The notes beneath the pieces were generated by a model. It worked only from the letters and a program-made list of their open reading frames with translations. It searched no databases and was not told where the DNA came from. This document shows, one piece after another, positions 6,981 through 55,506 of a stretch of DNA of 64,000 nt. Source of the DNA: Candidatus Omnitrophota bacterium (GTDB taxonomy: Bacteria > Omnitrophota > Gorgyraeia > Gygaellales > Profunditerraquicolaceae); the NCBI GenBank assembly GCA_041662125.1, contig JBAZTA010000005.1:52978-116977 (forward strand), given 5' to 3'. Numbering within the stretch: position 1 is the stretch's first letter; every line of letters starts with the position of its first letter. A program made the translations under genes and the position numbers.

Positions 6981-7013
6981 ATATGTTTAAAGAAGCGGTG
7001 AGAAAGGTTTCAT

Positions 7014-8648: not shown

Positions 8649-8650
8649 AT

Positions 8651-16673: not shown

Positions 16674-16702
16674 TAATTGAATTAATCAATTTTTTTAAAA
16701 GA

Positions 16703-21269: not shown

Positions 21270-21282
21270 ATATAAAGGTTTT

Positions 21283-30244: not shown

Positions 30245-30389
30245 GTATAGGTTTAAGCAGCTTAAAAAAGGCAAGTCATCTGTTGTTTTCTGACGGAAGA
30301 TTTGCCTTTTTTATTGCCGCGTTTATACCGATTTCTCGCTCTTGATAAGGCTTGAAATTCTCATAATTAACGATATAATGATAAAGGTT

Positions 30390-32556: not shown

Positions 32557-33853
32557 AAAAAGAATTATTATTTTAGGGGCAGGTGTTGCTGGTTTGAGCG
32601 CTGCATGGCATTTGCAGAAAAACAATATTGATTGCCATGTGTATGAAAAAGAAGATGAAGTAGGCGGATTATGCCGCTCCCAGAAAATAGAAAATTTTAC
32701 TTTTGATTATTGCGGGCACGTACTGCATTTCAGGCACGCGTATGTGTTTGATCTGATCAAAAAGATGTTAGGCGGCAATTTAGCCGCACATCGAAAAAGC
32801 GCCTGGGTCCATTCGTTTGGGGTTGATACCCGTTATCCTTTTCAGGCAAATCTTTTCGGGTTGCCGCATTCGGTCGTTGAAGAGTGCCTCTTGGGTTTTA
32901 TTGAGGCGCAAAAGAGTGATGGTAAGGGAATCGGTCAAAAACAGGATTTCTCCTCCTGGATACATGCTACATTTGGAAACGGTATCGCGCGTCATTTCAT
33001 GATCCCCTATAATACGAAATTCTGGACCATTGCGCCGGAGAAAATGACCTGCGAATGGTTTGATGGTTTTATACCCGTACCTACGTTAAGGGAAGTTGTT
33101 GAAGGGACTATTGAAGAAAGTAAACGGCAATTCGGCTATAATGCCCGGTTTTGGTACCCTAAACAGGGGGGGATAAGCCAAGTCCCTCAGGCGTTTGCCA
33201 AGGGGCTTGCGAATATATGTACCGGCATTCGAGTTACGGGGATCAATCTGGAAAAAAAAGAAATAACTCTTTCTTCCGGGCATAGCCAAGCTTTCGATTG
33301 TTTGATCTCGACACTGCCTTTACCTGAGGTGGCAAAGCTTTTGCATTGGATGCCGCCGGCGGCGAGGAGGTCGTTTGCAAAATTAAGATGGAATTCGATC
33401 TATAATTTGAATCTCGGATTTGATGGAGCAGAAGGGTCTCGGCGTCATTGGATATATTACCCGAAGCCAGATGTGTGCTTTTTTCGCGCTGGTTTCCCGC
33501 ACAATTTCTCTTCTGATCTTGTTCCGGCTCATAAAAGCTCTTTATATATTGAAGTCGCTTATTCACAAAAAAAAGATATTGATAAAAGGAGTATTATTGC
33601 CCGTATAAAAAAAGATCTAAAGAAAGTCGGCCTTTTTTCTGCGGAAAACCATGTGCGTGTCAGTCGTGGCAATGATATTCAATACGGGTATCCTTTGTAT
33701 GACAGAAATTATAACCTGGCGCGCAGTGTGATCGTACGCTACCTTTTGGGAAAAAACATGTTTTTATGCGGCCGGTATGGCTCATGGCGGTATATGTCCA
33801 TGGAGGATGCGATACTTGACGGCAAGAATACAGCGGAATCATTCTTATTATGA
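32549..33853 (+). CDS. FAD-dependent oxidoreductase (amine-oxidase / UDP-galactopyranose-mutase-like fold)
   Basis: N-terminal KRIIILGAGVAGLSAAWHL...VYEKEDEVGG (FAD-binding GxGxxG + acidic residue). Length 434 aa. Confidence 0.6.
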   Translation: MVKKRIIILGAGVAGLSAAWHLQKNNIDCHVYEKEDEVGGLCRSQKIENFTFDYCGHVLHFRHAYVFDLIKKMLGGNLAAHRKSAWVHSFGVDTRYPFQANLFGLPHSVVEECLLGFIEAQKSDGKGIGQKQDFSSWIHATFGNGIARHFMIPYNTKFWTIAPEKMTCEWFDGFIPVPTLREVVEGTIEESKRQFGYNARFWYPKQGGISQVPQAFAKGLANICTGIRVTGINLEKKEITLSSGHSQAFDCLISTLPLPEVAKLLHWMPPAARRSFAKLRWNSIYNLNLGFDGAEGSRRHWIYYPKPDVCFFRAGFPHNFSSDLVPAHKSSLYIEVAYSQKKDIDKRSIIARIKKDLKKVGLFSAENHVRVSRGNDIQYGYPLYDRNYNLARSVIVRYLLGKNMFLCGRYGSWRYMSMEDAILDGKNTAESFLL

Positions 33854-34629
33854 TACAAAACAGGATCAAAGCGCTTTTTCTTTACCGGCATACGCTCTGG
33901 GATATGGCGATCTCACAGCTTAAAGCGCGGTATGCATCATCTTTTTCCGGGATATATTCTTCTTTGATCAGCCCTTTCTTGATCATGTCGGTCATAACAT
34001 TTGTTTTTACCTGTGTTTTTAAAGTGGAGATGCGTAATTTTCCTTTGTTTATTTTCTCGGGTATCATTCCCTGGATGTTTTTCTCAAACGCGTTAACAGA
34101 ATCTGCGTCTTCCATTTTGAACCAACTTAACATTTTGCGGCAGTTTAACCTCCCCCGGGAAATCTTGCCGTTAAGCTGTGTCTTGGCGCATTTTCTTAAC
34201 TTTCTTGTCGGTTGGGTGGTTCTCTATCCGGTTTTTTTGTTTTTTAACCCGAAAATAATCCTTCTTTTGCCGTTTTTATGTATCATCATTCTTCTTCACC
34301 TGGTTTTGCTGCTGGGGTTGGGGCTGCTTTTATCAGTCCTTACCGTTTTATTCCGGGATATCGTTTATTTACTCTCAGTCGCACTTATGTTCCTGTTTTG
34401 GATCACTCCTGTTTTTTATTCCACTGCTGTCATGCCCGCGCAGTTCCAGTGGATATTTAACTTTAATCCCATGGTCCCGTTTATCCTTGCCTATCAGAAG
34501 ATCCTTTATTACGGCGTCATCCCTGAAACCTTTTTGATCTTGAGTGTTTTTTCCTGGTCAGTGATGAGTGTTATTCTGGGTTTTATTGTTTTCTCGCGTC
34601 TTGAGAATAAGATCTTAAAAAATATATAA
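33850..34629 (+). CDS. wzm: ABC-2 type polysaccharide exporter permease (Wzm/KpsM/TagG family)
   Basis: LFLYRHTLWDMAISQLKARYASSFSGIYSSLISPFLIM motif region. 6 TM helices. Start overlaps upstream stop (ATGA). Confidence 0.8.
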   Translation: MIQNRIKALFLYRHTLWDMAISQLKARYASSFSGIYSSLISPFLIMSVITFVFTCVFKVEMRNFPLFIFSGIIPWMFFSNALTESASSILNQLNILRQFNLPREILPLSCVLAHFLNFLVGWVVLYPVFLFFNPKIILLLPFLCIIILLHLVLLLGLGLLLSVLTVLFRDIVYLLSVALMFLFWITPVFYSTAVMPAQFQWIFNFNPMVPFILAYQKILYYGVIPETFLILSVFSWSVMSVILGFIVFSRLENKILKNI

Positions 34630-37350
34630 ATGAAGATCATTTCTTTTAACGATGTCTGGGAAATGTACCGCCTTAAGATGGTGGTAGCTCATAAGGCGCA
34701 GTGGGAAAACTTCTGGGCGTTAAAAGGAGTTTCTTTCGATATTGAGCAGGGAGAGACGGTCGGGCTTATCGGCGGCAATGGCATGGGTAAAACAACCATA
34801 TTAAAATTGATCATGGGTATGCTGCAGCCGGACAGGGGCCAGATCAAAGTAAACGGCAGAGTGTCTGGTTTACTGGAGTTAGGCGCCGGATTTCAACCGG
34901 AGTTGACGGGATTAGAGAACGTTCATTTGAATGTCGGCTTGTTTGGCGTTGCGCATAATGAAATCGATGAGAGAGCGAAAGATATTGTCAGTTTCGCTGA
35001 AATCGGCAGGTTTATAAACGCGCCGGTTAAATGTTATTCTCAGGGTATGTTTGTAAGGCTTGCTTTTGCCATCGCCATACACGTTAATTTCGAGATCCTT
35101 TTAATTGACGATATCTTGGCGGTCGGCGACGAATTTTATCAAAGAAGGTGTATTAAGAAGATTTTGGAACTAAAAGAACAGGGCAAGACTATTATTTTTG
35201 TCAGCCATGACCTCGCTCTGCTGGGGCGCCTTTGTAAAAGGGCATTGTTTATGAAAGACGGGCGGTTGATCAAAGATGACCTTATCGATAATTCTATTTC
35301 ATTATATTCACAGACGATAGGTGCCAAAGAAGGCGTGGCGGTTTTAGAGAAGAAGCCCCTCGATGTTGTTTTTAATAATGGCAGTGTTTTCTTTAATTGG
35401 AATGAAAAACTCCTGACCCCTAATACCGGAGTGACGAGTTCTTTTTTTATATCAAACCAATGGTATAGTTCTACCCAGGCTGAATGGGAAGTCACTCAGG
35501 TCAGTGAGTCTGAATTTTGTGCCCGTGGCGTTTTCTATCACGTGCCGTTAACGATACTCTGGAGAATATCTCTATGCGAAGGAAATGAGATAAAGTTCAG
35601 TTTCAGCAGTGAGGCTTCCCGGCTACTGGAGATCAAAACGGGGCATATCGATTTTATGTTCATTAATGAATATGCCCGGTGGGTAACTGCGGTCGAGTCA
35701 GGCGAATTCCCTGTTATTGATTTGCAAGACGCGCATGCAAAGCCTCAGCTTGAGCACAATGTTTCACGCCAGTCTATAGGCCTGCTCGCCGGGGGCCACC
35801 GGCGTGAAGTTTTCATTCCGTCTTTGGGCATTTCTTATGATAGCTGTACGCAGGTAAAGAAGACCCAAGTGTATAACACTGACTATATGGGGAATTGCCG
35901 GCTCATACGATTTAGCACTGGCGCTTTCTTTCAAGACGCCGGCTTAGAGCCTCAAGCGTCCGTTTATTTTCAAGGGTCGGTTGTGTTTAATGTCCCTGAT
36001 ATCAACAGCTTTTTGATCCAGAAACAGAATGATGTAATTCTGACTCAAGGCGATCTTCGCTTGATGTTTAATAATGGCTCATGTTTGCTTGCCTGGGCAG
36101 GCATTTATTTGACAAAGACGTATCATTTGATAACGTTGATCTTTTCGAAAGGAAAACAATGGCCTTCTAATAACGCGCAGTGGGATGTTGAGAAGGCCGG
36201 CGTTTATTCCTTGACTGCTCGGGGAATCCGTCCGGGGCTCGGCTTTGTTGAAGTATGGCGCCTGGAGATCACGGGAAAATCTTCTTTCCGCTGGCAAGTT
36301 GGACTTGAAGTCAAACAGGAGATCCCTCTTGAAGAACAATATATGTGTTTTATGTGTTCAGAGCAGTATCGCTCCTGGTTTGCTGCCCATGGCAGGGGGA
36401 GTTTTCCCGATAATTTTCTGGAAACAGATGTAGACGTTGCGCAGCGGTGTATCGGTGAGGGATCAGTCGGCGTATACAGTGAGAATAAACAGTTCCCAAC
36501 TTTAACGGTCAGGTTTTCCAAAGAGCTGAATAATTTCGCCAAGATAATGAATGCTGATTTTAATGAAAGAGCCCGGATCGTGCGCATTCAAAGGGTTGAG
36601 CCGGAAAAGGATATTCTTCATTCTCCCGGGACGTATCCTTGCCTGGATGTGGAAGTGGTATTGGGTGAGGATGCCCCTCAGGGCACTGAATCCGCCCGTA
36701 GTACGGTGCAGTCGGATAAACTAAAGTTCGTCTTTGAGAAAGGACGGGGTGAGTTGTTTTGGGATGGTGTCGAGCTCACGAAACGTTTGGGATTCTATAC
36801 TGCTTTACGTTGCGGCGGGCGTTGGTATGATTCTTTGTCTGATGCGCTCTGGAAAGTGCAGCAGAAAGATACGTTGGTGTCCGCGCGAGGTAAATGGCAG
36901 CATTTGCCTGTAAGCCAGGTATGGGAAATACGGCTACATTCCAGCACTTCGATCGAAGTAGTGGTAAAAATGATCGTTGAGCAGGAAATAGAAGTCGACC
37001 GGATACAGGCAAACCTGATGCTGTTAGAACGGTATACCCGCTGGACGGCAGGGAAAAGTTCCGGGGAATTTTCCGATTTTAAAGATACTCTTGATGATGA
37101 TTGGGATAGTGTTTACCGGGAAACCAATGGTTTGGGATGTATCGGCGTAGGAGCCGTTAAAGACTCATCTGTGTATATGCCTGCTGTGCATGTTTCTTAT
37201 AGGAAATCAAGTTTTACCTGGGTGCCGACAGTTATTAATTCTGACATTTATCATCGAGCCAGAGTCCTTCAAATGTTGAACTCAAAGACTCAGAAGATAC
37301 CCGCTGGTGAATACATGTATTTCATCGGTGAAATAAAGATCTCCCATTAA
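34630..37350 (+). CDS. wzt: ABC polysaccharide exporter ATPase (Wzt/KpsT family) with ~650-aa C-terminal extension
   Basis: Walker A GGNGMGKTT, signature/Walker B region LLIDDILAVGDEF, H-loop VSHD. Residues ~250-906 are extra and have no recognised motif. Confidence 0.8.
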   Translation: MKIISFNDVWEMYRLKMVVAHKAQWENFWALKGVSFDIEQGETVGLIGGNGMGKTTILKLIMGMLQPDRGQIKVNGRVSGLLELGAGFQPELTGLENVHLNVGLFGVAHNEIDERAKDIVSFAEIGRFINAPVKCYSQGMFVRLAFAIAIHVNFEILLIDDILAVGDEFYQRRCIKKILELKEQGKTIIFVSHDLALLGRLCKRALFMKDGRLIKDDLIDNSISLYSQTIGAKEGVAVLEKKPLDVVFNNGSVFFNWNEKLLTPNTGVTSSFFISNQWYSSTQAEWEVTQVSESEFCARGVFYHVPLTILWRISLCEGNEIKFSFSSEASRLLEIKTGHIDFMFINEYARWVTAVESGEFPVIDLQDAHAKPQLEHNVSRQSIGLLAGGHRREVFIPSLGISYDSCTQVKKTQVYNTDYMGNCRLIRFSTGAFFQDAGLEPQASVYFQGSVVFNVPDINSFLIQKQNDVILTQGDLRLMFNNGSCLLAWAGIYLTKTYHLITLIFSKGKQWPSNNAQWDVEKAGVYSLTARGIRPGLGFVEVWRLEITGKSSFRWQVGLEVKQEIPLEEQYMCFMCSEQYRSWFAAHGRGSFPDNFLETDVDVAQRCIGEGSVGVYSENKQFPTLTVRFSKELNNFAKIMNADFNERARIVRIQRVEPEKDILHSPGTYPCLDVEVVLGEDAPQGTESARSTVQSDKLKFVFEKGRGELFWDGVELTKRLGFYTALRCGGRWYDSLSDALWKVQQKDTLVSARGKWQHLPVSQVWEIRLHSSTSIEVVVKMIVEQEIEVDRIQANLMLLERYTRWTAGKSSGEFSDFKDTLDDDWDSVYRETNGLGCIGVGAVKDSSVYMPAVHVSYRKSSFTWVPTVINSDIYHRARVLQMLNSKTQKIPAGEYMYFIGEIKISH

Positions 37351-39272
37351 TGGATATTTCTATAGTTGTTCCGACATTTAACCGTAAAAATAAGCTTAAA
37401 TCCTGCCTGGAATCGATTTTTGCCCAGGATTACCCCTTAGAGCGTTTTGAAATTATTGTTGTTGATGACGGCTCTACTGATGGGACCAAGGACATGGTTG
37501 CAGCATTAAAGCCTGCTTTTCCTCATCTGCGTTATTACTATCAGGAGAATCAAGGGCCGGCAGCTGCCAGGAATTTCGGGGTCAGGCAGTCAAAAGCTGA
37601 CATCGTAGGGTTTACTGATGACGATTGCCGATTAAGCAGATCATGGGTGCGCGCGATGCTTGCATCGTATGCTTTAGAGCCTTTGGCAGACGTTGTCGGA
37701 GGCAAAACAAGCGTTGATGCGCGCAACATAAAAGCGCTGGTGAGCCAGTCTTTAAGTGACGGCGCGATATTCGCGGATATAGGGGTTGAGAAAAAGATAA
37801 TTTTTTTCCCGACCTGTAATGTCTCTTATAAAAAAAGCTCTGTGAACGCAGAATTTGCTCAGTCATTCTGTTTTCCTGCCGGTGAAGACCTGGAGTTTTT
37901 CTGGAGGCTGTATAAGGGCGGAAGCAGGTTTGTTTTTAATAAAAATATCGCAATCACTCACAATTGCCATATGAACCTGAGGTCGTTTATTCGTCAGGCA
38001 TACTTATACGGCAGAGGTAATTTCCGGGTTAAGTATGTCCATCAAGACCATCCTTTATTAAAAGAAATAAAAACGAACAATATTTTTTGTTTCTTCGGGG
38101 CAACAATACTTAATTTATTGAAAATACCGCGTTTTGCTTATACGTTAGGTTTTTCTTTGGTGAAAAAACACCGCATCCGCGGGTTTTATACGCGGCTGCA
38201 GGTTTTTGCGTTTTTTATACTGCATAAGGTCGTGTATTTGCTTGGCAATTTTGTCGAATATTTCACGGTCAGAAAAATGGCTCAACCAGGACAAAGCGTT
38301 GATTGCCCTTCTATAACAAACAGCCTTCTCAAGCCGGAAACTATTATATTGGATATTACGCATCGCTGTAATCTTTTCTGCACAATTTGCGATATAAGAA
38401 AAGATAAACCTATTCTTGAATATTCCACGCAGGAAGTAAAAGATCTTATCGTGCAGGCAATTGACTGGGGAGTTCATGATTTTGTGCTCTCCGGCGGGGA
38501 AGCGCTCATGCGCAAGGATATTCTCTCAATCCTTGATTTTGTTAAGGAAAAGAAGTATTGCGTTGGTTTGCTGACAAACGGAATTTTGCTCACTCAGGAT
38601 TTCCTCAGGGTACTTTTGCCGTATTTAACTTCTGGTTCGTTATCGCTCTGTATCTCTCTTGATAGTTTGCGCGCCGCTGTTCATGACGAGATCCGCGGTC
38701 TGCCGGGGTGTTTTGATAAAACATTCGCGGGTATTACAATGCTTGCGCAGCAAAAACAAGTTTTTCCGAACATAAATTTTAACGTGATCACGATCATACT
38801 CAACGAAAACTTAGAAGAGCTGCAGACGATCGCCAGTACTGTTTTATCGTTGAATGCTAATTCTTTGCAATTTCAGCCTTTACTTTCCAATAACCGGATC
38901 TTGAAAGACAGGGCAGATAAGGTTAAATATTGGGTGCCTCGAGAACGAATACCGGTCCTTGATAAAGCCATCGATGCTCTGGTCGTCTTTAAAAAGGCTA
39001 ACCCCGCGTTTATGAGGAATTCTGAAAACAATCTTGAATTAGTAAAGAAATATTTCCGGGGAAGCCTTGTAAATTCTGATATACAGTGCCATAACGCGGC
39101 AAAAACTATGCTTATTGCCTATACCGGCGATATAACGACTTGTTTTGATTGTTATGGAAATATACGCAAAGAGCCCTTAGAGCAAATCTTTCATGCTCCT
39201 GCGGCAGAGCAGGCGCGCCGGAAAGCTGCCGGTTGCGCAGCACCGTGCCTGCTGCCATGTTTTACCGACTAA
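37350..39272 (+). CDS. Fusion protein: N-terminal family 2 glycosyltransferase + C-terminal radical SAM/SPASM domain
   Basis: N-term ISIVVPTFNRKNKLKSCLESI...EIIVVDDGSTDGT...FTDDDC (GT2). From ~aa 330 ILDITHRCNLFCTICDI (CX3CX2C), LSGGEALMRKD and C-terminal Cys cluster (CHNAAKT...TCFDCYGN...CAAPCLLPC). Single uninterrupted ORF of 640 aa. Confidence 0.75.
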   Translation: MDISIVVPTFNRKNKLKSCLESIFAQDYPLERFEIIVVDDGSTDGTKDMVAALKPAFPHLRYYYQENQGPAAARNFGVRQSKADIVGFTDDDCRLSRSWVRAMLASYALEPLADVVGGKTSVDARNIKALVSQSLSDGAIFADIGVEKKIIFFPTCNVSYKKSSVNAEFAQSFCFPAGEDLEFFWRLYKGGSRFVFNKNIAITHNCHMNLRSFIRQAYLYGRGNFRVKYVHQDHPLLKEIKTNNIFCFFGATILNLLKIPRFAYTLGFSLVKKHRIRGFYTRLQVFAFFILHKVVYLLGNFVEYFTVRKMAQPGQSVDCPSITNSLLKPETIILDITHRCNLFCTICDIRKDKPILEYSTQEVKDLIVQAIDWGVHDFVLSGGEALMRKDILSILDFVKEKKYCVGLLTNGILLTQDFLRVLLPYLTSGSLSLCISLDSLRAAVHDEIRGLPGCFDKTFAGITMLAQQKQVFPNINFNVITIILNENLEELQTIASTVLSLNANSLQFQPLLSNNRILKDRADKVKYWVPRERIPVLDKAIDALVVFKKANPAFMRNSENNLELVKKYFRGSLVNSDIQCHNAAKTMLIAYTGDITTCFDCYGNIRKEPLEQIFHAPAAEQARRKAAGCAAPCLLPCFTD

Positions 39273-39287
39273 AGCGGGATACCTACG

Positions 39288-40421
39288 ATGAGTATTGATC
39301 ATAAACGGTTGTTGTATTTGGCGCGGCGCGGCTTTCTGTTTTGGCTTTCCCGGAAAATTGACTATCCGCTTGTTTCCCCTGATTGCCTGCAGATCAATTT
39401 TACCTTCCGCTGTAATTTGCGTTGTAAAATGTGCAGTATGCAGGAGCGTATGGAGTCGTTTCGCCTGCAAAATAAACAAATAGAATTAGATAAGCAGACT
39501 ATAAAAAAGCTTATTAAAGAAGCCTTTGCTATGGGTGTTGTGTATTTGATCTTGATAGGAGGGGAGCCGTTCTTAGACCCCGGGATATATGAGATCATTG
39601 CATATGCCAAACAATGCGGGATGCGTGGTGTGACTGTTGTTACTAACGGGACGCTGTTTTCTGAACCTGTTATAAAGGAAATTTTTGATTGTAAGCTGGA
39701 TAACTTAAGTATTTCTATCGATGCGGCTTCAGAGGCAGTTGTTTCTCAAATACGAGGGGAGAACGTTTTGCAAAAGATCATCGATAACGTAACGCTGCTT
39801 AACCGGATGAAAGAACGCGCTCAGTTGGCCCTGCCGAATATTGTATGTGTATGCACAATTATGAACCAAAATGTGCATGAGATCATGGATGTTGTCGCGT
39901 TGTGCCGGAAGTTAAAGATCCCGCGGATCATCTTTCAGCCCGTTGTGCACGACAATACCGATCAAAACCGTATTGATTTCAGTTCCGATGTTTTTATCCC
40001 GGCACAAAAGTTTTCGGTGCTCGATGGTGCAATTGATTCCCTTATTGAGTATAAGCAATCAAATCGTAATAATTATGAGTTTGTTGCCAATTCGACCGTC
40101 CATTTAAAGCTAATAAAAAAATATTTCCGCTCTGCTTTAAAACCCCGGGAGCTGCCTTGTTATTCCGGTTTTAATCGTATTCAGGTGGTCCAGGAAGGAA
40201 AAATATATTTTTGCGTTAATCAGTCTGAGCATGAAGCAGTCGTGGGGAATATGAATACCGATAGTTTGAAAGCAGTGTGGTTTTCAAAAGAAGCCCGGGA
40301 CTTAAGAAAATTGATACGTAAATGCGTGTTTCCCTGTTTGCAGTGGTGCGCGTACCGCGATGAATTTATTGAGATATCAGATATTTGGGAAAAAAACAAG
40401 CTTTTTAAAAACAATCCGTAG
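39288..40421 (+). CDS. Radical SAM enzyme with SPASM-like domain
   Basis: FTFRCNLRCKMCSM, IGGEPFLDP. C-terminal CYSGFNRIQV...CVNQSEHEAVVGNM...CVFPCLQWC. Confidence 0.75.
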   Translation: MSIDHKRLLYLARRGFLFWLSRKIDYPLVSPDCLQINFTFRCNLRCKMCSMQERMESFRLQNKQIELDKQTIKKLIKEAFAMGVVYLILIGGEPFLDPGIYEIIAYAKQCGMRGVTVVTNGTLFSEPVIKEIFDCKLDNLSISIDAASEAVVSQIRGENVLQKIIDNVTLLNRMKERAQLALPNIVCVCTIMNQNVHEIMDVVALCRKLKIPRIIFQPVVHDNTDQNRIDFSSDVFIPAQKFSVLDGAIDSLIEYKQSNRNNYEFVANSTVHLKLIKKYFRSALKPRELPCYSGFNRIQVVQEGKIYFCVNQSEHEAVVGNMNTDSLKAVWFSKEARDLRKLIRKCVFPCLQWCAYRDEFIEISDIWEKNKLFKNNP

Positions 40422-40439
40422 GAAAATACAAGAAACGAT

Positions 40440-41864
40440 ATGAGAAACGCTCAAAAACAGGCAGAGTTAGTTTTGGTTATGTGCCCCTTATGGGGCGTAT
40501 CTCAGCCTCCGATCAGTATCAGTTACCTCAGTGGGTTTTTGCAGAAGCATGGTGTCAGTGTCAGATGTTTTGATTTTAGTTCGGCGTTGTATAGGGTTTT
40601 TCCGGAAAAGAAGTGCTGGGACTTGAATTTCCCGGAATATTTTATGTCTCCTGAACTTTTTAACCGGCATATCAAACCTGTTTTAAATCCGGTTATCAGC
40701 GATTGGGCTGGGCAAATTCTGGCGTTGCGTCCTTCTGTGGTAGGGTTTTCTTTATTTATGTCAAATATGTCTGCGAGTTTGCTTTTAGCTCAGGAGCTCA
40801 AAAAACGTGCCCCTGATCTTCTAATCGTCGCGGGAGGCTGTGAAGTCACCAGGATCAAACGCATATACGTTGACGGCATACAGCGCAGAGCGCATCTGGA
40901 TACCGATGTTATAGACAGCGGTGTTTTTGACCTGTTTATTGACGGGGAGGGGGAACAATCACTCTTGGAAATAGTTTCTTTGATCAGGAAAAATGAGGAT
41001 TTTCATTTGATCAAGGGCGCAGTGTTCCGCCAAAATGGGAAGTTTGTTGCCAACCCGCCGCAAGAGCTCATGGCTAACCTCGATATCGTGCCGCCTCCTG
41101 ATTTCCATGATTTTTTTCTTGATGATTATACAAGGCGCAGCCTGCCGATCGTTACCAGCCGCGGTTGCGTGAACCGGTGTACTTTTTGTGCCGACAGCCC
41201 TTTGTGGAAAGTCTACCGGTACCAGTCAGCGGAAAAAGTTTTTAACGAATTCTCTTTCTTATCCAAAGAATACGGCATCTCTGATTTTGAAATAGTCGAT
41301 TCAACGTTTAACGGTAATATCGAGCGCGTGGATAAGCTCTGCGCGTTGATCATTAAGTCTGGCTTAAAGATCCGCTGGGCAGCAAAAGCGACGCTGCGCA
41401 AAGAAATGGATCATGCTTTGTTATGCCATATGCAAAAAGCCGGTTGCGTCGATCTTGCTTATGGCGTAGAAAGCGGCTCCTACCGTGTGCTGCAGGATAT
41501 GCGTAAGAATACCGATCTGCTTGAGATCAAAAGGATCATACGAGATACCTGGAAAGCAAAGATCCGGGTGAATAGTTTTTTCCTGATCGGTTACCCGACA
41601 GAAACGGAAGATGATTTTCAGTTAACCCTTGATTTTGTCAAGGAAAACGCGCGCTATATTCATCGTTTTGACCAGATCACCGGTTGCCATTTAGAAGAAG
41701 ATTCTTATTTGAGCCTTAATGCACAGCAATATGGTATCGAGATAAAAGATGACGGGTGGTGGAGCCCTGTGAGCACGCCTGCTATACGTAAAGACCGGCT
41801 CAATAGGTTTCGTGAACTTGCGCGCAAACTCCATGCGCATTATCGCTGTGAAGTGCAGCTGTGA
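40440..41864 (+). CDS. B12-binding (class B) radical SAM enzyme
   Basis: TSRGCVNRCTFCADS, GVESGSYRVLQDM. N-terminal B12-binding-like domain. Confidence 0.75.
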   Translation: MRNAQKQAELVLVMCPLWGVSQPPISISYLSGFLQKHGVSVRCFDFSSALYRVFPEKKCWDLNFPEYFMSPELFNRHIKPVLNPVISDWAGQILALRPSVVGFSLFMSNMSASLLLAQELKKRAPDLLIVAGGCEVTRIKRIYVDGIQRRAHLDTDVIDSGVFDLFIDGEGEQSLLEIVSLIRKNEDFHLIKGAVFRQNGKFVANPPQELMANLDIVPPPDFHDFFLDDYTRRSLPIVTSRGCVNRCTFCADSPLWKVYRYQSAEKVFNEFSFLSKEYGISDFEIVDSTFNGNIERVDKLCALIIKSGLKIRWAAKATLRKEMDHALLCHMQKAGCVDLAYGVESGSYRVLQDMRKNTDLLEIKRIIRDTWKAKIRVNSFFLIGYPTETEDDFQLTLDFVKENARYIHRFDQITGCHLEEDSYLSLNAQQYGIEIKDDGWWSPVSTPAIRKDRLNRFRELARKLHAHYRCEVQL

Positions 41865-43021
41865 TACATATGAAACTGCTTAAAGAATTAGAAAAGAACC
41901 TGGGGTATTATTTCTCAGGGGTAGTTAATGCCCCTTTGAGTAAACCGCATTGGATATTTGTGAGCCTGACGCATCGCTGTAATTATTCTTGTCAAATGTG
42001 CGGAGTAAGCAAGATCTTACGGGAGCATGAGTTGGATTTTGGGCTCCTGCAAAAAGTTTTTAAAGAGATAGCAGGATGGGATTCTGATTGTGTCATGGTT
42101 TTTACCGGCGGGGAGCCTTTTTTGCGCAAGGATATATTTGAGATCATTGCCTGCGCGGTTTCTCTGGGAATTAAAACTGAGTTGGTCAGCAATGGAAGCC
42201 AAATTATAGACAGGGCTATCGCGCGCAAGATAATACGTTCGGGATTAAGCAATATCGCTATTTCTCTTGATGGCGCATCTGCAAAGGTCCATGATGGCAT
42301 ACGGGGAGTTCCCGGCGCATTTGAGATGGCTTTGGATGCGTTAGGCTTCTTAAGTGAAGAAAAAAAGTTGTATCCTTGCGGCCCGCAGATCTCTGTTTGG
42401 ACGACCATAATGAAAGAAAATGTATTTGAGTTGTCACAGATCATTCCCGTAACCAGGGCGCAAGGCGTTGAATGCCTCGTATATCACCCGGTGATTGTGA
42501 CGCAAGATGATATGCAAAATACGATCAAATCCGGGCATTTTTGGGTTACCGAAGAATATATCGCGCCTTTAAAACAACAAATAGAAAAAATAGCCGCATA
42601 TCAGAAGAAAGAAGGGTATGTCGCATTTTTGCATGACCCATTTTTATGGCTTCGATATTTTCAGTGGGATCTTACAAAAGAAGACTGGAAATGTAATCCT
42701 TTTGTTTTTATTGATATCGGGCCTGATGCCTTTGTAAGAAGCTGCGGCCCGGCTTTTGGCAATGTCAAAGAAATGACCTTGAGTGAATGTTTAGAGACTA
42801 AGGAAGCAAATCGGGCGCGGGAAAGAATGCTGCGCTGTGATCGGCCGTGTTTACAGACTTGCTGGGGCAGGCCGGAGGCCGACGCTTTAGAAGATATCGT
42901 GCGGAATTTCAGCAAAGAAGTAGAGGGCTTGCGCGTTTCAAAAGGGCGGAAAAAAGATGTGTTGAACGCTGCTGTCGCGTTATTGTCACGGTATGAATCC
43001 ATGATCCGCAAAGATTATTAA
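41861..43021 (+). CDS. Radical SAM enzyme with SPASM-like domain
   Basis: LTHRCNYSCQMCGV, FTGGEPFLRKD. C-terminal CGPAFGNVKEM...CDRPCLQTC. Confidence 0.75.
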   Translation: MIHMKLLKELEKNLGYYFSGVVNAPLSKPHWIFVSLTHRCNYSCQMCGVSKILREHELDFGLLQKVFKEIAGWDSDCVMVFTGGEPFLRKDIFEIIACAVSLGIKTELVSNGSQIIDRAIARKIIRSGLSNIAISLDGASAKVHDGIRGVPGAFEMALDALGFLSEEKKLYPCGPQISVWTTIMKENVFELSQIIPVTRAQGVECLVYHPVIVTQDDMQNTIKSGHFWVTEEYIAPLKQQIEKIAAYQKKEGYVAFLHDPFLWLRYFQWDLTKEDWKCNPFVFIDIGPDAFVRSCGPAFGNVKEMTLSECLETKEANRARERMLRCDRPCLQTCWGRPEADALEDIVRNFSKEVEGLRVSKGRKKDVLNAAVALLSRYESMIRKDY

Positions 43022-43023
43022 AA

Positions 43024-44187
43024 ATGGAACCACGATTATCAGAAGTGATTATTTCGATCACAAACCGCTGTAATTTGCAGTGCGCGATGTGCCAGATACC
43101 GTTGAGGGCTGCTCCGGAAATGACGACGCCTGAACTCAAAGGCTTGATCGAGGATATCGTTGATCTGCATCCCCGCAGTATCGTTTTTAGCGGCGGGGAG
43201 CCGCTCATGCGTCCTGATATCGGCGAGCTGATCGCGTTCGCGAATCAGCGTAAAGTCAATACCTGCCTTACCTCAAACGGGACAATGATCACTGATCAAA
43301 CGGCTGCCATGCTTGCCTCATCAGGTGTGGGCGTGGTCAATGTTTCTATTGAGGGTGGCCAAGAGATCCATGACGCGTTGCGCGGGCGCGGTAATTATAA
43401 GAAAGCTGTTGATGCTTTGGAAAACTTACGGCGCCATAAGATCGAAACAACGATCGCTACCATGGTATGTAACCTGAATTTCGGCTCCCTTTCTGAAGTC
43501 ATGGAATTGGCCGCTCGTTTTGGGGTAACGACGGTAAAATTCCAGCCGTTCAGCGATATATTCTTAAAGGATAAGGCGGACGCCGGCCGGTTTTTTTGCG
43601 GCGAAAAAACAATCGATGATATCCGCGGGAACATAGAAAAAGTCATAGAACTCTCCAGGAAATACAGGATTTCTACTAATCCGCCTGCTTATCTGAGGAA
43701 TATTCCCGAGTACCTCACGGGCATGAGCAAGTATAGTACAAATGTTCAATGCCCTGCTTTATGGACTTCCTGCCCGATCTCTTCAGAAGGGGATGTCCAT
43801 CTCTGTTGGGTGCTTTCTGAAATTGTTATCGGCAATTGTAAGAGTAAAAAGATCACTGAGATCTGGGGCTCGGTTGCCCATGACCGGTTGCGAAAATCCG
43901 TGCTGAAAGATAAATGTTCAGGCTGCCTTATGAGTTGCTATGATACGCAGTACGGTACCAATAGTATCCCTGAATTGATAGCTCTTAAAGCCCGGAAAAT
44001 AAAACAGCCTCAATTCTACAAGCGCCAGTATTTTAGGGCGTATCAATACGCGCAATACCTTTTTAAGAAAGTTTTCAATACCCTGCTGCGTTTAAATAAT
44101 CCTCTTAAGAAAAATAAAAAAGCGGTATCCCTGGTTTTAGACGAGATTCGCGCCGCAAAAGATTTCTTAAGGAAACAAATGCATTGA
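43024..44187 (+). CDS. Radical SAM enzyme with SPASM-like domain
   Basis: ITNRCNLQCAMCQI, FSGGEPLMRPD. C-terminal CPALWTSCPISSEGDVHLCW...CSGCLMSCYD. Confidence 0.75.
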   Translation: MEPRLSEVIISITNRCNLQCAMCQIPLRAAPEMTTPELKGLIEDIVDLHPRSIVFSGGEPLMRPDIGELIAFANQRKVNTCLTSNGTMITDQTAAMLASSGVGVVNVSIEGGQEIHDALRGRGNYKKAVDALENLRRHKIETTIATMVCNLNFGSLSEVMELAARFGVTTVKFQPFSDIFLKDKADAGRFFCGEKTIDDIRGNIEKVIELSRKYRISTNPPAYLRNIPEYLTGMSKYSTNVQCPALWTSCPISSEGDVHLCWVLSEIVIGNCKSKKITEIWGSVAHDRLRKSVLKDKCSGCLMSCYDTQYGTNSIPELIALKARKIKQPQFYKRQYFRAYQYAQYLFKKVFNTLLRLNNPLKKNKKAVSLVLDEIRAAKDFLRKQMH

Positions 44188-45470
44188 GAGTGGATAGTAT
44201 GAATGATGTTTGCCTCTATATTCCCTGCTATAATTCTGAAAAAACGATTCGTTTGAGCCTTGAGGCAGTGTTAAAGCAGTCGTATCCGTTAAAAGAGGTC
44301 CTCGTTATTGATGACTGTTCCAGCGATAAAAGCGTTGAGATCGTTTCGTCATATCCGGTAAAACTCCTGCGGCTTGATACTAACAGCGGGTTGGCATCGG
44401 TAAGGAATATTGCAATACATACTTTAAAATCTGAATATGTCGCATCGGTGGATGCGGATTGTGTGCCTGAAAAAGATTGGCTCAAGTATAGTATGCGCAG
44501 ATTCGACCGGAAAGGGATTGCCGGGGTAGGCGGAAAGCTTGTTGAGCGAAACCAGTCGAGCTTAGCTGATATCTGGCGCAGCGTGCACATGAAGCAGCAC
44601 TGGGATGGGGCAGGGAATAACCCTGAATTTTTATTCGGTTCAAATACTGTATTTAAAAAAGAAACTTTGGTGAATATTGGAGGTTATAACGAAATATTAA
44701 GGAATAATTACGAGGATGTTGATATTTGCAACCGCTTGGAGAAGGCGGGGTATAGTTATGTATACGAGCCTGAGGCGATAGCGTATCATTATAAACAGGA
44801 TGATGCCTGTTCTGTCCTTAATAATTTCTGGAGATGGTATTTCCCGTATAATCAGAGCCAGGGCTTTTATTCCGGTGAGGAAAAATTATTGTTAAAGGTA
44901 AAGGATAACCTGGGGTTGGCAAACCGTTTTATCGGTGAGGATGCGGCTGCCGGCCGCCAGGAGCTGCTTTATTTGGATTTTCTACTGGCGTTCCATCATT
45001 CGTTAAAAGACCTGGAATATATGTTTATTTGCCAATCTTCGTCGTATCCTGATTCTCTGCCGTCTACCTATTGGCTGTCGTTAGTTGATCTGACGTTCGC
45101 ATGCCACGTAAACCTGCCGGGCAAGGATTTGCTGACTTTTTTGCCTGAGTCAAACGCTTTTGTCCAGAACTGCCTCGCGCTTAACCTGATCTTAGGAGGA
45201 TTGTTGAAAAAAGAATTTAAGAGTGACAATTTTAACAGGCTTTTGTTTAAACATCTGCTGTTTTCTTTGGATACCTTTGATGATGATGCTTTCTTGGACG
45301 CTATGGCTAACCTGGTTAATTATCATACGGATTGGCGCCTGTTGTTTCAGGCGAAGCATCCGTATCTTAATTCTTTGTTCCTTGAGCATTTTATTAATGT
45401 TTTCAACAATTGGATCTGGAACCTCAAGCCCTGCATTAAAGGGATTGAATCGTCCGCTCAAAAATTTTGA
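44184..45470 (+). CDS. Family 2 glycosyltransferase with C-terminal extension
   Basis: CLYIPCYNSEKTIRLSLEAVLKQSYPLKEVLVIDDCSSDKS. DAD motif. Confidence 0.75.
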   Translation: MRVDSMNDVCLYIPCYNSEKTIRLSLEAVLKQSYPLKEVLVIDDCSSDKSVEIVSSYPVKLLRLDTNSGLASVRNIAIHTLKSEYVASVDADCVPEKDWLKYSMRRFDRKGIAGVGGKLVERNQSSLADIWRSVHMKQHWDGAGNNPEFLFGSNTVFKKETLVNIGGYNEILRNNYEDVDICNRLEKAGYSYVYEPEAIAYHYKQDDACSVLNNFWRWYFPYNQSQGFYSGEEKLLLKVKDNLGLANRFIGEDAAAGRQELLYLDFLLAFHHSLKDLEYMFICQSSSYPDSLPSTYWLSLVDLTFACHVNLPGKDLLTFLPESNAFVQNCLALNLILGGLLKKEFKSDNFNRLLFKHLLFSLDTFDDDAFLDAMANLVNYHTDWRLLFQAKHPYLNSLFLEHFINVFNNWIWNLKPCIKGIESSAQKF

Positions 45471-45496
45471 TCACACTATTGTTTTAATAAAAAGGA

Positions 45497-45913
45497 GTGA
45501 CTATGAAAAGAAAAAAGATGCCGACAACACGTGTTTTAGATCTTACCGCGATAGCGGTCCTGGTGGTGGGGCTTGTATTATGCGGCTATGTGCTTTTTTT
45601 TAAGTTTATCGGTGTCAAGTCGGTGCTCATCAGTATTGTAACATTTCTGATGAGCGTTGTTTTAGCCGCGTTGATCCGCATGATCGGGATAATGGGTGAG
45701 TTCCTGTATACGATCACAGAATCTTTGTTTACCCTGAATCAATCGGTTGTATCATTGTCTGATGATGTTTTACGCCAGGAGCTATCGGAAATCTCGGAAA
45801 TAAAGCATGGTATTGAGAAAATAAGTTCAGACACAAAAGATATTACCGTGAGTATTGATGATATTAATGTTTTTTTTCAGAAAATAGAGCGGCATTTAGA
45901 CCTGAAAAGATAA
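45497..45913 (+). CDS. Small membrane protein, hypothetical
   Basis: AAAAGGAG RBS upstream. Two TM helices, then a predicted coiled-coil tail. Confidence 0.5.
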   Translation: MTMKRKKMPTTRVLDLTAIAVLVVGLVLCGYVLFFKFIGVKSVLISIVTFLMSVVLAALIRMIGIMGEFLYTITESLFTLNQSVVSLSDDVLRQELSEISEIKHGIEKISSDTKDITVSIDDINVFFQKIERHLDLKR

Positions 45914-47271
45914 TGCGCATTGTATTGTTGAACCTTCCCTGGAGAAAACAGGGTTGTTTTGGGGTCAGGGCCGGCTCTCGCTGGCCTTTCACGGTTAAAC
46001 CGCGCACCGAGGGGCCCCTGCAGTATCTGCCGTTCCCTTTTTTCCTCGCATACGCTACAGCGCTTCTGAATCAGCAAAAACACAACGCGATGCTTATTGA
46101 CGCGATCGCGCAAGGGATGGATGAACATCTCATCCTCGACAAAGTTCGATTGCTTATGCCGGAGCTTATGGTCATAGAAACCTCAACTCCAAGTTTCGAT
46201 AATGATATCAATATTATTAAAGGCCTTGCGCGCGCGGTTCCCGCATGTCAGATAGTCTTGTGCGGCCCTCATGCCAGCGTGTATCCGAAATTTATCCTTG
46301 AACAGTATGATTTTGTTTCATTTGTTTTAGTCGGCGAGTATGAAATGACTCTCGCCGATTTAGCTAAAGCCAGAAGCCAAGGGCTGCCTTTGAGATCGGT
46401 GCCGGGTTTAGCTTTTCGTAAAGGCAAAGAGGTCTTTGTTACTGCTCGAAGAAAGACGCTCGGCGACCTTGATAGCTTGCCCTTGCCGGAAAGGGAATCC
46501 CTTCCCCTATATAATTATAATGATGGATTTTGCGGATTAGCTCAGCCTAATGTGCAGATGGTTTCCAGCCGCGGGTGCCCGTTCAATTGTACCTATTGCC
46601 TTTGGCCGCAAACACTGTATTTTGAACGCAAATACAGGAAACGAAACCCCGTCAAAGTAATAGATGAAATGGAGTTTTTGATCAAGAATTACCGGTTTAA
46701 AGCGGTATATTTCGACGATGACTTGTTTAATTATGATAAGGATCATGTCGCGGGGATTTGCCGTGAGATCGTTAAAAGAGGGATCTCTATCCCCTGGGCA
46801 GTAATGGCGCGCGCGGATTTGATGAATGAGGGTATGCTTGAACAGATGTCTGAGGCTGGGTTATACGCGGTAAAGTATGGCATTGAAGCGGTCAATAAGA
46901 ATATCTTAGGTTTGTGCAGGAAACAAATGAACTTGAAGAAAGCCTGTTCTATGATCGCCTTTACCAAAAAACTCGGCATAAAAATTCATTTAACCTTTTG
47001 TTTGGGGTTACCCGGAGAAACAAACACTACGCTTCGGGAAACCCGTGATTTCATCGATGCTGTAAAGCCTGATTCTTTGCAATTTTCTTTTGCAACGCCG
47101 TTTCCCGGGACGCGGTATTTTGATTTTGTGGAAAAAAAAGGGTATCTTGTATCGCGTGACTGGGGAGATTATGATGGAAATTTGCGGTGTATCGTTAAGA
47201 CGGCTGCGTTAAGCGCGCAGGAATTAGAAGGTGTTCGCAATGATCTCTATCGTTATTATAACCTGCAATAG
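45913..47271 (+). CDS. B12-binding (class B) radical SAM enzyme
   Basis: SSRGCPFNCTYCLWP, GIEAVNKNILGL. N-terminal B12-binding-like domain. Confidence 0.75.
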   Translation: MRIVLLNLPWRKQGCFGVRAGSRWPFTVKPRTEGPLQYLPFPFFLAYATALLNQQKHNAMLIDAIAQGMDEHLILDKVRLLMPELMVIETSTPSFDNDINIIKGLARAVPACQIVLCGPHASVYPKFILEQYDFVSFVLVGEYEMTLADLAKARSQGLPLRSVPGLAFRKGKEVFVTARRKTLGDLDSLPLPERESLPLYNYNDGFCGLAQPNVQMVSSRGCPFNCTYCLWPQTLYFERKYRKRNPVKVIDEMEFLIKNYRFKAVYFDDDLFNYDKDHVAGICREIVKRGISIPWAVMARADLMNEGMLEQMSEAGLYAVKYGIEAVNKNILGLCRKQMNLKKACSMIAFTKKLGIKIHLTFCLGLPGETNTTLRETRDFIDAVKPDSLQFSFATPFPGTRYFDFVEKKGYLVSRDWGDYDGNLRCIVKTAALSAQELEGVRNDLYRYYNLQ

Positions 47272-48106
47272 CGCTGCCTGCATTAAAGCGTGCTTGGATT
47301 CTCTGCGCGCGCAGGCAGGGGCCGGTTTTGAGGTTATTATTGTCGATAATGGATCGACAGATGCGACGCGGGATATAATAAAGGAGTCTTACCCGCAAGC
47401 TGCCCTGATCGCCAATACGGTTAATGTTGGAGCGGCGGGAGCGCGTAATCAAGGGATCAATGCTGCGCGGGGCAGCTGGGTACTTACTTTGGATTCGGAT
47501 ATTGTCTTAGGAGAACAGTTCCTGTCGCGTTTTGATACGTATTTGAGCGGATTACCTTTCGGCGTAGGGATGGTGCAGCCAAAAATACTGGACAGTAAAG
47601 CAAAGATTATTTATTCCTGCGGGATCCATATGTCCTGGTTTTTTCGTTTTTTTGATATCGGTTTAGGCAGCGCGGATAGTGAAAAATTTGGCAAAGAGCA
47701 AGATATTTTCGGGGTATGCTCAGCTGCTTCTTTTTATAGACGGCAAATGCTTTCTGATATCAAAGAATCATACGGTTATTTCGATGAGCGGTTTTTCTTT
47801 CTGGTCGAAGATGTTGACCTATCATGGAGAGCTCATGCCCGTGGCTGGAAAGCGCGGTATTTTCCTGATGCCGCCTGTTTTCATAAAGGCAATAGTTCTG
47901 GTTTTAGCCGTAAGGCAAGGCAGTACCTTTGCTGGCGTAACCGGAAATTGATGATCGCTAAAAACCAGCACGTATTTTTCCGCAGGGCAATATCTTTTGT
48001 TTTATATGACGCCCCCCGCGCGATATTCCTTTTCTTTGCTAACAGCTATGTGCGCCGCGCGCTGCTTCATATCGGGGAGACAACCAAGGATAAGCTGACC
48101 AGATGA
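47240..48106 (+). CDS. Family 2 glycosyltransferase
   Basis: MISIVIITCNSAACIKACLDSL...EVIIVDNGSTD, DSD motif. GAAGGTG RBS 7 nt upstream of the ATG at 47240. The ORF-track start at 47231 is GTG. Confidence 0.7.
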   Translation: MISIVIITCNSAACIKACLDSLRAQAGAGFEVIIVDNGSTDATRDIIKESYPQAALIANTVNVGAAGARNQGINAARGSWVLTLDSDIVLGEQFLSRFDTYLSGLPFGVGMVQPKILDSKAKIIYSCGIHMSWFFRFFDIGLGSADSEKFGKEQDIFGVCSAASFYRRQMLSDIKESYGYFDERFFFLVEDVDLSWRAHARGWKARYFPDAACFHKGNSSGFSRKARQYLCWRNRKLMIAKNQHVFFRRAISFVLYDAPRAIFLFFANSYVRRALLHIGETTKDKLTR

Positions 48107-48918: not shown

Positions 48919-48923
48919 ATACG

Positions 48924-51374: not shown

Positions 51375-51419
51375 CATGAGAAAATTTGTTCCCGTGAATT
51401 AAAAAAACATTCATCAGGG

Positions 51420-55344: not shown

Positions 55345-55506
55345 ATGAAGAAAATAGCCTATATTTTTAAGGAAATGTTTTATATGATCCGCCTGCATAA
55401 ATTATTTTTTATCGCACCACTCCTGTTTGTCCTGGCGTTATTAGCTATACTCGTTTATTATGTCGGGCCAACTGTCATTATGTCGTTCATTTACGCGGGT
55501 ATCTGA
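55345..55506 (+). CDS. Small membrane protein (53 aa, below ORF-track cutoff), hypothetical
   Basis: ATG at 55345, translation MKKIAYIFKEMFYMIRLHKLFFIAPLLFVLALLAILVYYVGPTVIMSFIYAGI, GAGGGGG upstream. Small TM proteins of this kind commonly accompany NodU/CmcH-type carbamoyltransferases (recollection, not searched). Confidence 0.3.
   Translation: MKKIAYIFKEMFYMIRLHKLFFIAPLLFVLALLAILVYYVGPTVIMSFIYAGI

Follow-up and report, generated by a model that had tools for sequence, protein, structure and literature searches.

A conserved array of radical SAM enzymes with a glycosyltransferase fusion in the Wzm/Wzt glycan-export locus of Omnitrophota

ABC-transporter-dependent assembly of O-antigens and related glycans has been described for Escherichia coli O9a (WbdA/WbdD with Wzm/Wzt), for the WzmWzt transporter of Aquifex aeolicus, and for Klebsiella and the mycobacterial galactan. 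To our knowledge, none of these named systems contains a radical S-adenosylmethionine (SAM) enzyme (hereafter, rSAM). Among the rSAMs that tailor sugars, BlsE, DesII, BtrN, AprD4, GenK/GenD1, NeoN and AviX12 are single enzymes working on small-molecule antibiotics, and they set precedents for the radical epimerisation, oxidation, decarboxylation, deoxygenation and C-methylation of sugars. The locus described here lies in a 64 kb stretch of Candidatus Omnitrophota DNA (hereafter, the window) and brings the two together. On the forward strand, an array of six rSAM genes (37350, 39288, 40440, 41861, 43024 and 45913, each named by its start position in the window; the open reading frames (ORFs) span 37350–47271) follows the genes for a Wzm/Wzt transporter, and the first gene of the array encodes a family 2 glycosyltransferase (GT2) fused to an rSAM domain. 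Both the transporter pathway and sugar-acting rSAMs were known already; what is new is their union as a conserved multi-rSAM array with glycosyltransferase-rSAM fusions. An original prediction, made from the sequence of the window, had held the arrangement to be undescribed, and we likewise found no description of it in the searchable full-text literature; in a recent survey of Omnitrophota genomes, radical SAM comes up only as a Pfam domain co-occurring in giant proteins.

The locus shares with the ABC-dependent systems a PF00953-family initiator, GT4 and GT2 glycosyltransferases, the Wzm permease and the nucleotide-binding domain (NBD) of Wzt, as well as a probable furanose supply through an enzyme resembling UDP-galactopyranose mutase (UGM), a Wzy_C ligase-family gene and a C-terminal extension on Wzt, as in the transporters that recognise modified chain ends. 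It differs from them in carrying five to nine rSAMs per locus, one of them fused to a GT2 domain, and in a Wzt extension of about 680 residues arranged as three repeats and dissimilar in sequence to the known Wzt carbohydrate-binding domain. The likeness to the sugar-tailoring rSAMs amounts to 53–56 bits for BlsE, with a TMt of 0.67 for the fold, and 90 bits for AprD4, scores that lie far below the level of orthology; and whereas those enzymes act singly on antibiotics, here a paralogue array is embedded in a phylum-conserved envelope glycan-export locus. From the comparisons set out below, we put the probability at roughly 65% that the array forms the core of a surface-glycan locus, dependent on an ABC transporter and Omnitrophota-wide, in which lineage-specific, paralogously expanded rSAMs act on sugar substrates.

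All six ORFs carry the CX3CX2C motif expected of them (in gene order, CNLFCTIC, CNLRCKMC, CVNRCTFC, CNYSCQMC, CNLQCAMC and CPFNCTYC). In a hidden Markov model scan with PF04055 six of six passed, with scores of 59–98 bits against a cutoff of 29.5 and E-values of 1e-16 to 1e-28, so that the predicted assignment of all six as rSAMs is far beyond chance. Transmembrane (TM) segments are predicted in none of the array rSAMs, which are therefore expected to be cytoplasmic. The predicted flank of WecA-, Wzm- and Wzt-type genes was also found, with PF00953 at 31570, ABC2_membrane at 33850 and ABC_tran at 34630. Beginning with the GT4 gene at 30342 and continuing to 51374, successive genes overlap or are separated by at most 26 nt, and a gap of 45 nt precedes 51420; this spacing fits the translational coupling that had been proposed. 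An Rfam scan of the whole 64 kb returned no family at its gathering score, and hence no cobalamin or SAM riboswitch ahead of the rSAM genes, and a scan for promoters and terminators gave nothing above the expectation from shuffled sequence.

The hallmark of the locus is the fusion gene (37350–39272), whose GT2 half had been overlooked when it was first listed as an rSAM. Pfam assigns residues 1–240 to GT2, 336–495 to rSAM and 580–629 to a SPASM-like domain (PF13186, 25 bits, cutoff 21.5). The corresponding AlphaFold2 (AF2) model (pLDDT 88) is composed of a GT-A fold (residues 1–230), three amphipathic helices (245–310), a disordered linker, the rSAM domain (330–510) and a cysteine-rich twitch/SPASM-like domain (531–640). 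No hydrophobic TM segment is predicted in the protein, only the amphipathic helices, and their placement between the GT2 and rSAM domains of the model suggests a position at the membrane interface. Residues invariant across 62 homologues include the DxD motif (D90/D92) and E179-D180 of the glycosyltransferase, the rSAM cysteines C340/C344/C347, the GGE motif at 382–384, and the auxiliary cysteines C580/C598/C629/C633/C637. As the GT2 catalytic motifs are among them, both halves of the protein look active from their sequences.

In Foldseek searches the glycosyltransferase part has TarP, TarS, RmlT and WrtF as neighbours, of which TarP and TarS are closest; these two enzymes decorate a polymer before ABC export. 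The neighbours of the rSAM part are BlsE (TMt 0.67), SkfB, SuiB and DesII. By sequence, the top solved structure overall is chondroitin synthase, which matches the GT2 half, and BlsE is nearest for the rSAM domain. The rSAM domain probably acts either on what its own GT2 domain produces or on the donor for that domain.

Full-length relatives of the fusion fall into more than 120 clusters (at 90% identity) that share 45–79% identity with it, and every one with a taxon name is assigned to Omnitrophota or Omnitrophica. In a profile search with the fusion alignment through 1.84 billion representative proteins, which carry no taxonomy, about 10 representatives (of 50%-identity clusters) matched over essentially the whole profile, which marks the fusion family as compact; the same search returned many proteins of 1100–1500 aa with a 37350-type rSAM at their C-terminus. 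A scan of contigs by exact peptide patterns from 37350 gave six full-length relatives, the other 60 matches being to the GT2 domain only.

Three stand-alone enzymes are paralogues of the fusion, with 26–29% identity to its rSAM domain within the window and 25–35% to copies in other loci. These are 39288 (39288–40421; PF04055 87 bits), 41861 (41861–43021; PF04055 59 bits), which is the core stand-alone rSAM, and 43024 (43024–44187; PF04055 98 bits). The prediction that they and the fusion are SPASM-type proteins holds in part. PF13186 exceeds its cutoff in 39288 (31 bits) and 43024 (37.5 bits) as it does in the fusion, but is not detected in 41861, which aligns with the other three through the same C-terminal cysteine positions. 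The auxiliary pattern C...C...CX3CX3C, with five invariant cysteines, is kept in the 62 homologues of the fusion and in 47 homologues of 41861 (C275/C292/C323/C327/C331, in addition to C37/C41/C44 of the rSAM motif), and the seven-cysteine SPASM motif CX9-15GX4C...CX2CX5CX3C...C is not found in either family. Five invariant cysteines would be enough for one full auxiliary cluster and not for the two of a canonical SPASM domain. By its cysteine pattern the domain is thus either twitch-like or a SPASM domain in reduced form, lying nearer to twitch than to the canonical SPASM, and "SPASM-type" is an approximate label. BlsE and SkfB, the nearest folds of the fusion's rSAM part, are of the twitch type.

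For the fusion and 41861 alike, BlsE ranks first or second among the solved relatives (53–56 bits; 56 bits and first rank for 41861). The best for 39288 is PqqE (52 bits), and for 43024 SkfB (54 bits), followed by BlsE (41 bits). The most conserved rSAM of the array, above even the fusion, is 41861, with at least 120 clusters at 53–86% identity; proteins of its type occur on contigs sized as the fusion-bearing ones are (for example 374,586, 320,864, 201,321, 169,962 and 149,560 bp). Orthologues of 43024 are present in four of the related loci introduced below (L004, L008, L010 and L012).

The remaining two enzymes, 40440 (40440–41864; PF04055 63 bits) and 45913 (45913–47271; PF04055 61 bits), had been predicted to bind B12 and, as B12-dependent rSAMs, to be C-methyltransferases. 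A B12-binding-type domain (PF02310), N-terminal in 40440, is detected in both, and class-B NCBIfam families align over most of their length (151 and 255 bits), but the PF02310 scores of 29.8 and 26.9 bits remain under the gathering threshold of 32.1. The functional part of the prediction proved too general. The closest families to 40440 are indeed methyltransferases (TIGR03975 RiPP C-methyltransferase, 151 bits against a cutoff of 282; ApyD, 148 bits; PhpK P-methyltransferase, 111 bits; RiPP denotes ribosomally synthesised and post-translationally modified peptide), all of them at sub-cutoff scores; its nearest solved relatives are the rSAM protein 9ccb and then AprD4, and it has orthologues in L005 and L009. 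In contrast, 45913 is closest to HpnJ, BchE and AprD4; its nearest relatives by sequence are rearranging or dehydrating enzymes and not methyltransferases. Its alignment spans almost the entire HpnJ model TIGR03471 with 255 bits, BchE comes next with 173 bits, and AprD4 (PDB code: 6fd2) is its best solved relative with 90 bits. No NCBIfam cutoff is passed by either protein, and neither reaches membership of a characterised methyltransferase family.

HpnJ, the rSAM of hopanoid cyclitol-ether formation, is believed to carry out a ring contraction on a sugar head group that is linked to a lipid, and a similar contraction has been proposed for the calditol synthase Cds (PMC13459092). The resemblance of 45913 to HpnJ stops short of membership, as its score lies below the cutoff of 577.6 bits, no hopanoid genes (shc, hpnH, hpnI, hpnK) are found in the window, and its context is one of Wzm/Wzt and GT2 genes. 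As an rSAM acting on a lipid-linked sugar, HpnJ nevertheless offers a precedent for the chemistry that we propose below. The nearest solved relatives of the fusion's rSAM domain, of 41861 and of 45913 are the sugar-modifying enzymes BlsE and AprD4, and at the level of sequence we count this in favour of sugars as the substrates.

The same matches could conceivably point to the lipid. The rSAMs would then modify the polyprenyl carrier or the acyl or isoprenoid chains of the exported glycolipid, in the manner of Tes, Grs, HpnH and ladderane-type rSAMs, and apart from the 255 bits to HpnJ there are weak matches to GDGT-MAS/Tes (33–39 bits) and to the ladderane-type B12 rSAM family TIGR04072 (115 bits). 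Biosynthetic gene clusters (BGCs) called as ladderane-type have also been reported in Omnitrophota metagenome-assembled genomes (MAGs; PMC9902471). We consider a lipid target improbable, however: the scores are far below the family cutoffs, lipid-synthesis genes are absent from the array and its borders in every locus, and the partners to which the rSAMs are fused are glycosyltransferases and not lipid enzymes. As a matter of speculation, the published "ladderane" calls might themselves stem from arrays like the one at 37350–47271.

The fusion served to collect 13 further independent loci (L002, L004, L005, L007–L012 and L073–L076; 46–79% identity), and the gene neighbourhood, whose conservation had been suggested as a check, is kept as Wzm-Wzt-fusion-rSAM across these 13 Omnitrophota loci. 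All 12 of those with upstream sequence show the order Wzm-Wzt-(0–2 genes)-fusion-rSAM array, and Wzm is present in every one. The Wzm-Wzt pair is directly adjacent to the fusion (at most 46 nt) in nine loci and separated from it by one or two genes in four. Wherever the flank suffices, four to eight additional rSAM genes are found at most 10 kb from the fusion, and in L002 nine rSAM genes follow Wzt consecutively. The close relatives L010 and L012 (78–79% identity) have the overall gene order of the window. The sequence of L012 (CAZPNW010000032.1) is labelled "uncultured Planctomycetales", although it is syntenic with the window and 79–80% identical in the fusion and Wzt, and all other taxon-labelled relatives are Omnitrophota; the label is likely a binning or taxonomy error.

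Larger fusions occur in three of the loci: a GT2-rSAM-rSAM protein of 963 aa and a GT2-rSAM-SPASM protein of 880 aa in L004 (10001–12892 and 20045–22687, respectively), a B12-type rSAM fused to a SPASM rSAM in L008 (962 aa; 5859–8747), and an rSAM-rSAM protein in L073 (786 aa; 15110–17470). The GT2 part of the 880-aa protein is an orthologue of 44184, a GT2 gene that stands inside the array of the window, and GT2 is thus joined to rSAM in two orthogroups, that of 37350 and that of 44184.

As predicted, the rSAM genes are interleaved with a GT2 gene and a small membrane protein gene. The first (44184–45470; PF00535, 104 bits) encodes a glycosyltransferase with a C-terminal domain of about 200 aa of no assigned type, and the second (45497–45913) a conserved protein of 138 aa; another GT2 gene (47231–48106; PF00535, 100 bits) lies directly 3' of the last rSAM gene. 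The small protein has two predicted TM segments and an invariant C-terminal tail (...FF..IE.HLDLK[KR]), and it matches no family in Pfam or NCBIfam. Homologues of 106–166 aa stand between the same GT2 and the B12-type rSAM in L010, L012, L074 and L075, where a three-gene module of a GT2 of about 430 aa, the small membrane protein and the HpnJ-like rSAM recurs; in L008 a homologue follows the same GT2 and the available sequence ends there. The small protein might serve as a tether or scaffold, and it is conceivable that it is a substrate.

The genes of a Wzm/Wzt glycan pathway (PF00953, PF01061, PF00005, a Wzt-type NBD and GT4 and GT2 glycosyltransferases) are all found in one locus. Upstream of the array, the run opens with the GT4 gene (30342–31580; PF00534/PF13439), which has orthologues in the same position in L002, L009, L010, L012 and L076. 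It is followed by the initiator, a WecA/MraY-family polyprenyl-phosphate sugar-1-phosphate transferase (31570–32556; PF00953, 116 bits) that scores 100 bits against the WecA model TIGR02380 (cutoff 326), and by a flavin adenine dinucleotide (FAD) enzyme (32549–33853; PF01593, PF13450) resembling the eukaryote-type UGM. The best solved relatives of the latter, over its full length, are the UGMs of Trypanosoma cruzi (PDB code: 4dsg; 149 bits, residues 4–416) and Aspergillus fumigatus (137 bits), and against the bacterial UGM model TIGR00031 it scores 48.6 bits (cutoff 304). Its sequence makes it a probable source of a furanose sugar, and a UGM-like gene adjoins Wzm also in L002, L005, L009, L010, L012, L073 and L076.

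Wzm (33850–34629; PF01061) and Wzt (34630–37350; PF00005) complete the flank. The NBD of the 906-residue Wzt (residues 1–225) matches best to Aquifex Wzt (PDB code: 8dku; 218 bits). The extension that follows (residues 232–906, window 35323–37347) is organised as three all-beta repeats of about 220 aa (232–462, 463–686 and 687–906) in an AF2 model of pLDDT 82. A profile of the repeat found no match in PDB or Pfam, including the known C-terminal carbohydrate-binding domain of Wzt. The homologues found for the extension are all ABC ATP-binding proteins of 681–929 aa (mostly about 900), and those named by taxon belong to Omnitrophota. Over its full length Wzt is 40–48% identical in the other loci, though their rSAM sets differ. 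According to PMC9445017, WzmWzt transporters often use a carbohydrate-binding domain to recognise a chain terminus that has been chemically modified. Given this habit, and the maintenance of the extension across differing rSAM sets, we infer that the extension probably reads the glycan or a conserved cap, possibly one made by the invariant GT2-rSAM neighbour.

The accessory genes that recur around the loci are all of glycan type (UGM-like, PMT_2 GT-C, SGNH/GDSL, carbamoyltransferase, WbuX-like, CysDN and Wzy_C), and extras found repeatedly in the related loci comprise PMT_2 GT-C, SGNH/GDSL, carbamoyltransferase, SAM methyltransferase and GH44-like proteins. The family matches of the rSAMs could suggest a different partner. 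Their sub-threshold NCBIfam hits are mostly to peptide maturases (StsB, WgkB, PqqE, MftC and the RiPP C-methyltransferase), and the architecture of an rSAM core with a C-terminal cysteine-rich Fe-S domain is that of the SPASM/twitch maturases AlbA, SkfB, PqqE, MftC (with the GT2 MftF), SuiB and the anaerobic sulfatase-maturating enzyme (anSME), of which SkfB, PqqE and SuiB are neighbours here. The mycofactocin cluster even joins an rSAM with a GT2, and MftF-like matches are present in this locus. The array might accordingly mature a peptide or protein and merely stand beside a glycan locus, with a peptide, the conserved 106–166-aa protein inside the array or the alkaline phosphatase (AP)/sulfatase-like enzyme encoded downstream as its substrate.

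Several observations make such a role highly improbable. No free ORF of at least 20 aa and no gap above 45 nt occurs between 30342 and 52235 (the intergenic scan covered 26.7–57.3 kb), and the small precursor-peptide gene whose discovery would have turned the array into a RiPP cluster was sought there and not found. No precursor peptide was called in the related loci, and neither a PqqD/RiPP recognition element (RRE) domain nor a leader protease is found in any locus; in the rSAM region of the window there is no match to PF05402. In the stand-alone rSAMs the motif begins at residue 16–42, and the 15–41 residues ahead of it leave no room for an N-terminal RRE. RiPP clusters differ further in their seven SPASM cysteines, against five conserved auxiliary ones here, and the array has only glycan-type neighbours and contains rSAMs fused to GT2 domains. 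A RiPP function was rejected on the ORF scan and the Pfam and NCBIfam tables, which gave no precursor, RRE or protease. Maturation of the downstream AP-superfamily protein by an anSME was likewise rejected: similarity is negligible, with anSME structures among the significant matches of 43024 only (23 bits) and TIGR03942 not among the matches listed for any of the six, and the AP gene is broken by a stop codon in the window and missing from the other loci. Both lipid-chain modification and peptide or protein maturation are much less likely than a sugar-directed role.

The synteny, the GT2 fusions and the lack of a peptide system support the earlier proposal that the dense rSAM block is functionally part of the Wzm/Wzt glycan pathway, with the class of substrate and the chemistry read from context. 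In the pathway that we propose, the tailored glycan is lipid-linked and probably contains galactofuranose, judging from the genes present. The WecA-like enzyme would prime polyprenyl phosphate, and the GT4 and GT2 enzymes would build the chain at the cytoplasmic face with a furanose donor from the UGM-like flavoenzyme. The six soluble, oxygen-sensitive rSAMs would then use 5'-deoxyadenosyl radicals to abstract hydrogens from sugar C-H bonds before export, although both this timing and the individual reactions are suggested by relatives and context. The four twitch/SPASM-like paralogues, including the GT2-fused one, would most likely epimerise, oxidise, decarboxylate or deoxygenate residues; the class-B, methyltransferase-like 40440 would most likely C-methylate; and the HpnJ/AprD4-like 45913 would most likely carry out a sugar-ring rearrangement or dehydration. 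Once complete, the lipid-linked glycan would be exported by Wzm/Wzt, with the triple beta-repeat extension of Wzt probably reading the glycan or cap, and the Wzy_C-family ligase would attach the glycan outside.

Sugars could also be altered at an earlier point, with the rSAMs making unusual NDP-sugar donors (deoxy, branched, epimeric or decarboxylated) for the GT2 enzymes and the fusion serving substrate channelling. The solubility of the rSAMs is compatible with this, BlsE and AprD4, which are the nearest of the characterised enzymes, work on sugar conjugates that are small and soluble, and a glycosyltransferase-rSAM fusion fits "make donor, then transfer" as well as "transfer, then modify". 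Yet the array holds no nucleotidyltransferase and no set of NDP-sugar dehydratase and aminotransferase genes, the amphipathic helices of the fusion suggest a membrane-interface position, and so many different donor-making rSAMs in each locus would be unusual. Donor synthesis, which would still be directed at sugars, seems to us rather unlikely, and the lipid-linked chain is our preferred rSAM substrate over a nucleotide sugar. A bolder version of chain modification, which we offer tentatively and at somewhat less than even chance, is a post-polymerisation radical tailoring of a lipid-linked polysaccharide as the glycan counterpart of RiPP maturation. The GT-fused and free rSAMs would in that case install C-methyl, carbocyclic, deoxy, epimeric or C-C/C-O cross-linked residues, variation in the rSAM set would generate surface diversity, and the Wzt triple repeat would act as an export checkpoint by recognising the modification that the radical enzymes had made.

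Some points weigh against a sugar-directed, glycan-locus role as a whole. All six rSAMs stay at or below 90 bits against any solved enzyme (the maximum being that of 45913 with AprD4, and the remaining five being under 60 bits) and below every NCBIfam cutoff, and most of their weak family matches by sequence are peptide or cofactor maturases. The Wzt extension is, as far as sequence comparison can tell, without detectable similarity to known carbohydrate-binding domains, and the conserved small membrane protein might be a protein substrate. Finally, WecA, UGM and GT4 genes are absent beside the array in L004, L074 and L075, so that a tie to one primer does not hold throughout.

Sugar rSAM chemistry has so far come almost only from single enzymes of antibiotic pathways. 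If the proposed role is correct, a phylum-wide envelope locus with this many rSAMs would amount to a new layer of polysaccharide diversification that is open to anaerobes. The fusions would pair sugar transfer and a radical step in one polypeptide and present defined targets for enzymology. Such a locus may help to explain the surface properties of ultra-small, host-associated Omnitrophota, and leads one to expect unusual sugars in anoxic environments. For genome mining it carries a caution, in that arrays of this kind could be mistaken for RiPP, ranthipeptide or ladderane clusters.

Downstream of the array, the forward strand encodes an accessory sulfate-activation module (48103–50165) formed by CysD (48103–48918; NF003587, 298 bits, above the cutoff of 195) and a CysN-like GTPase (48924–50165; TIGR02034, 228 bits, sub-cutoff). 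The pair occurs also in L010 and a CysD-like protein (PAPS_reduct) in L074, and both genes are missing from the close relative L012; no adenosine 5'-phosphosulfate (APS) kinase or sulfotransferase domain was detected near them. The AP-superfamily gene (50172–52235, forward strand) consists of two PF01663 "Phosphodiest" ORFs in one frame, separated by a single in-frame TAA at 51372–51374. The joined product would be a membrane-anchored protein of about 687 aa with two N-terminal TM segments, and the interruption reflects either a pseudogene, variation between strains or an error in the assembly.

Glycan genes continue farther 3'. A GT2 (52170–52928; PF00535, 104 bits) and the Wzy_C/O-antigen-ligase-family membrane protein (52897–54039; PF04932, 62 bits) are encoded on the reverse strand, followed on the forward strand by a WbuX-like N-acetyl-sugar amidotransferase (54103–55092; TIGR03573, 171 bits, cutoff 203) and a carbamoyltransferase gene (55541). 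A hydrophobic ORF of 53 aa (55345–55506) lies directly upstream of the latter, and in L074 a 61-aa DUF5989 protein (PF19451) and a 71-aa ORF are found just upstream of a carbamoyltransferase. Beyond the glycan genes, the segment 60077–63623 encodes a sigma-70-family protein (60077), a 236-aa ORF without assignment (60698) and a CHAT-TPR protein (61419).

A second glycan-like block is located at 3858–25127 of the window. It contains four rSAM genes that the original prediction had passed over, two of B12 type (5172–6980 and 22302–23771) and two twitch/SPASM-like (10381–11436 and 21214–22380), and these bring the total for the 64 kb to ten. Also encoded in this block are a PMT_2 GT-C (7014), a GT2 (9468), an epimerase (11480), an ATP-grasp protein (12445), a Glu-dehydrogenase-like protein (13639), a carbamoyltransferase (14967), two PaaK-like adenylating enzymes (3858 and 23805) and a beta-propeller protein of 1180 aa (16703).

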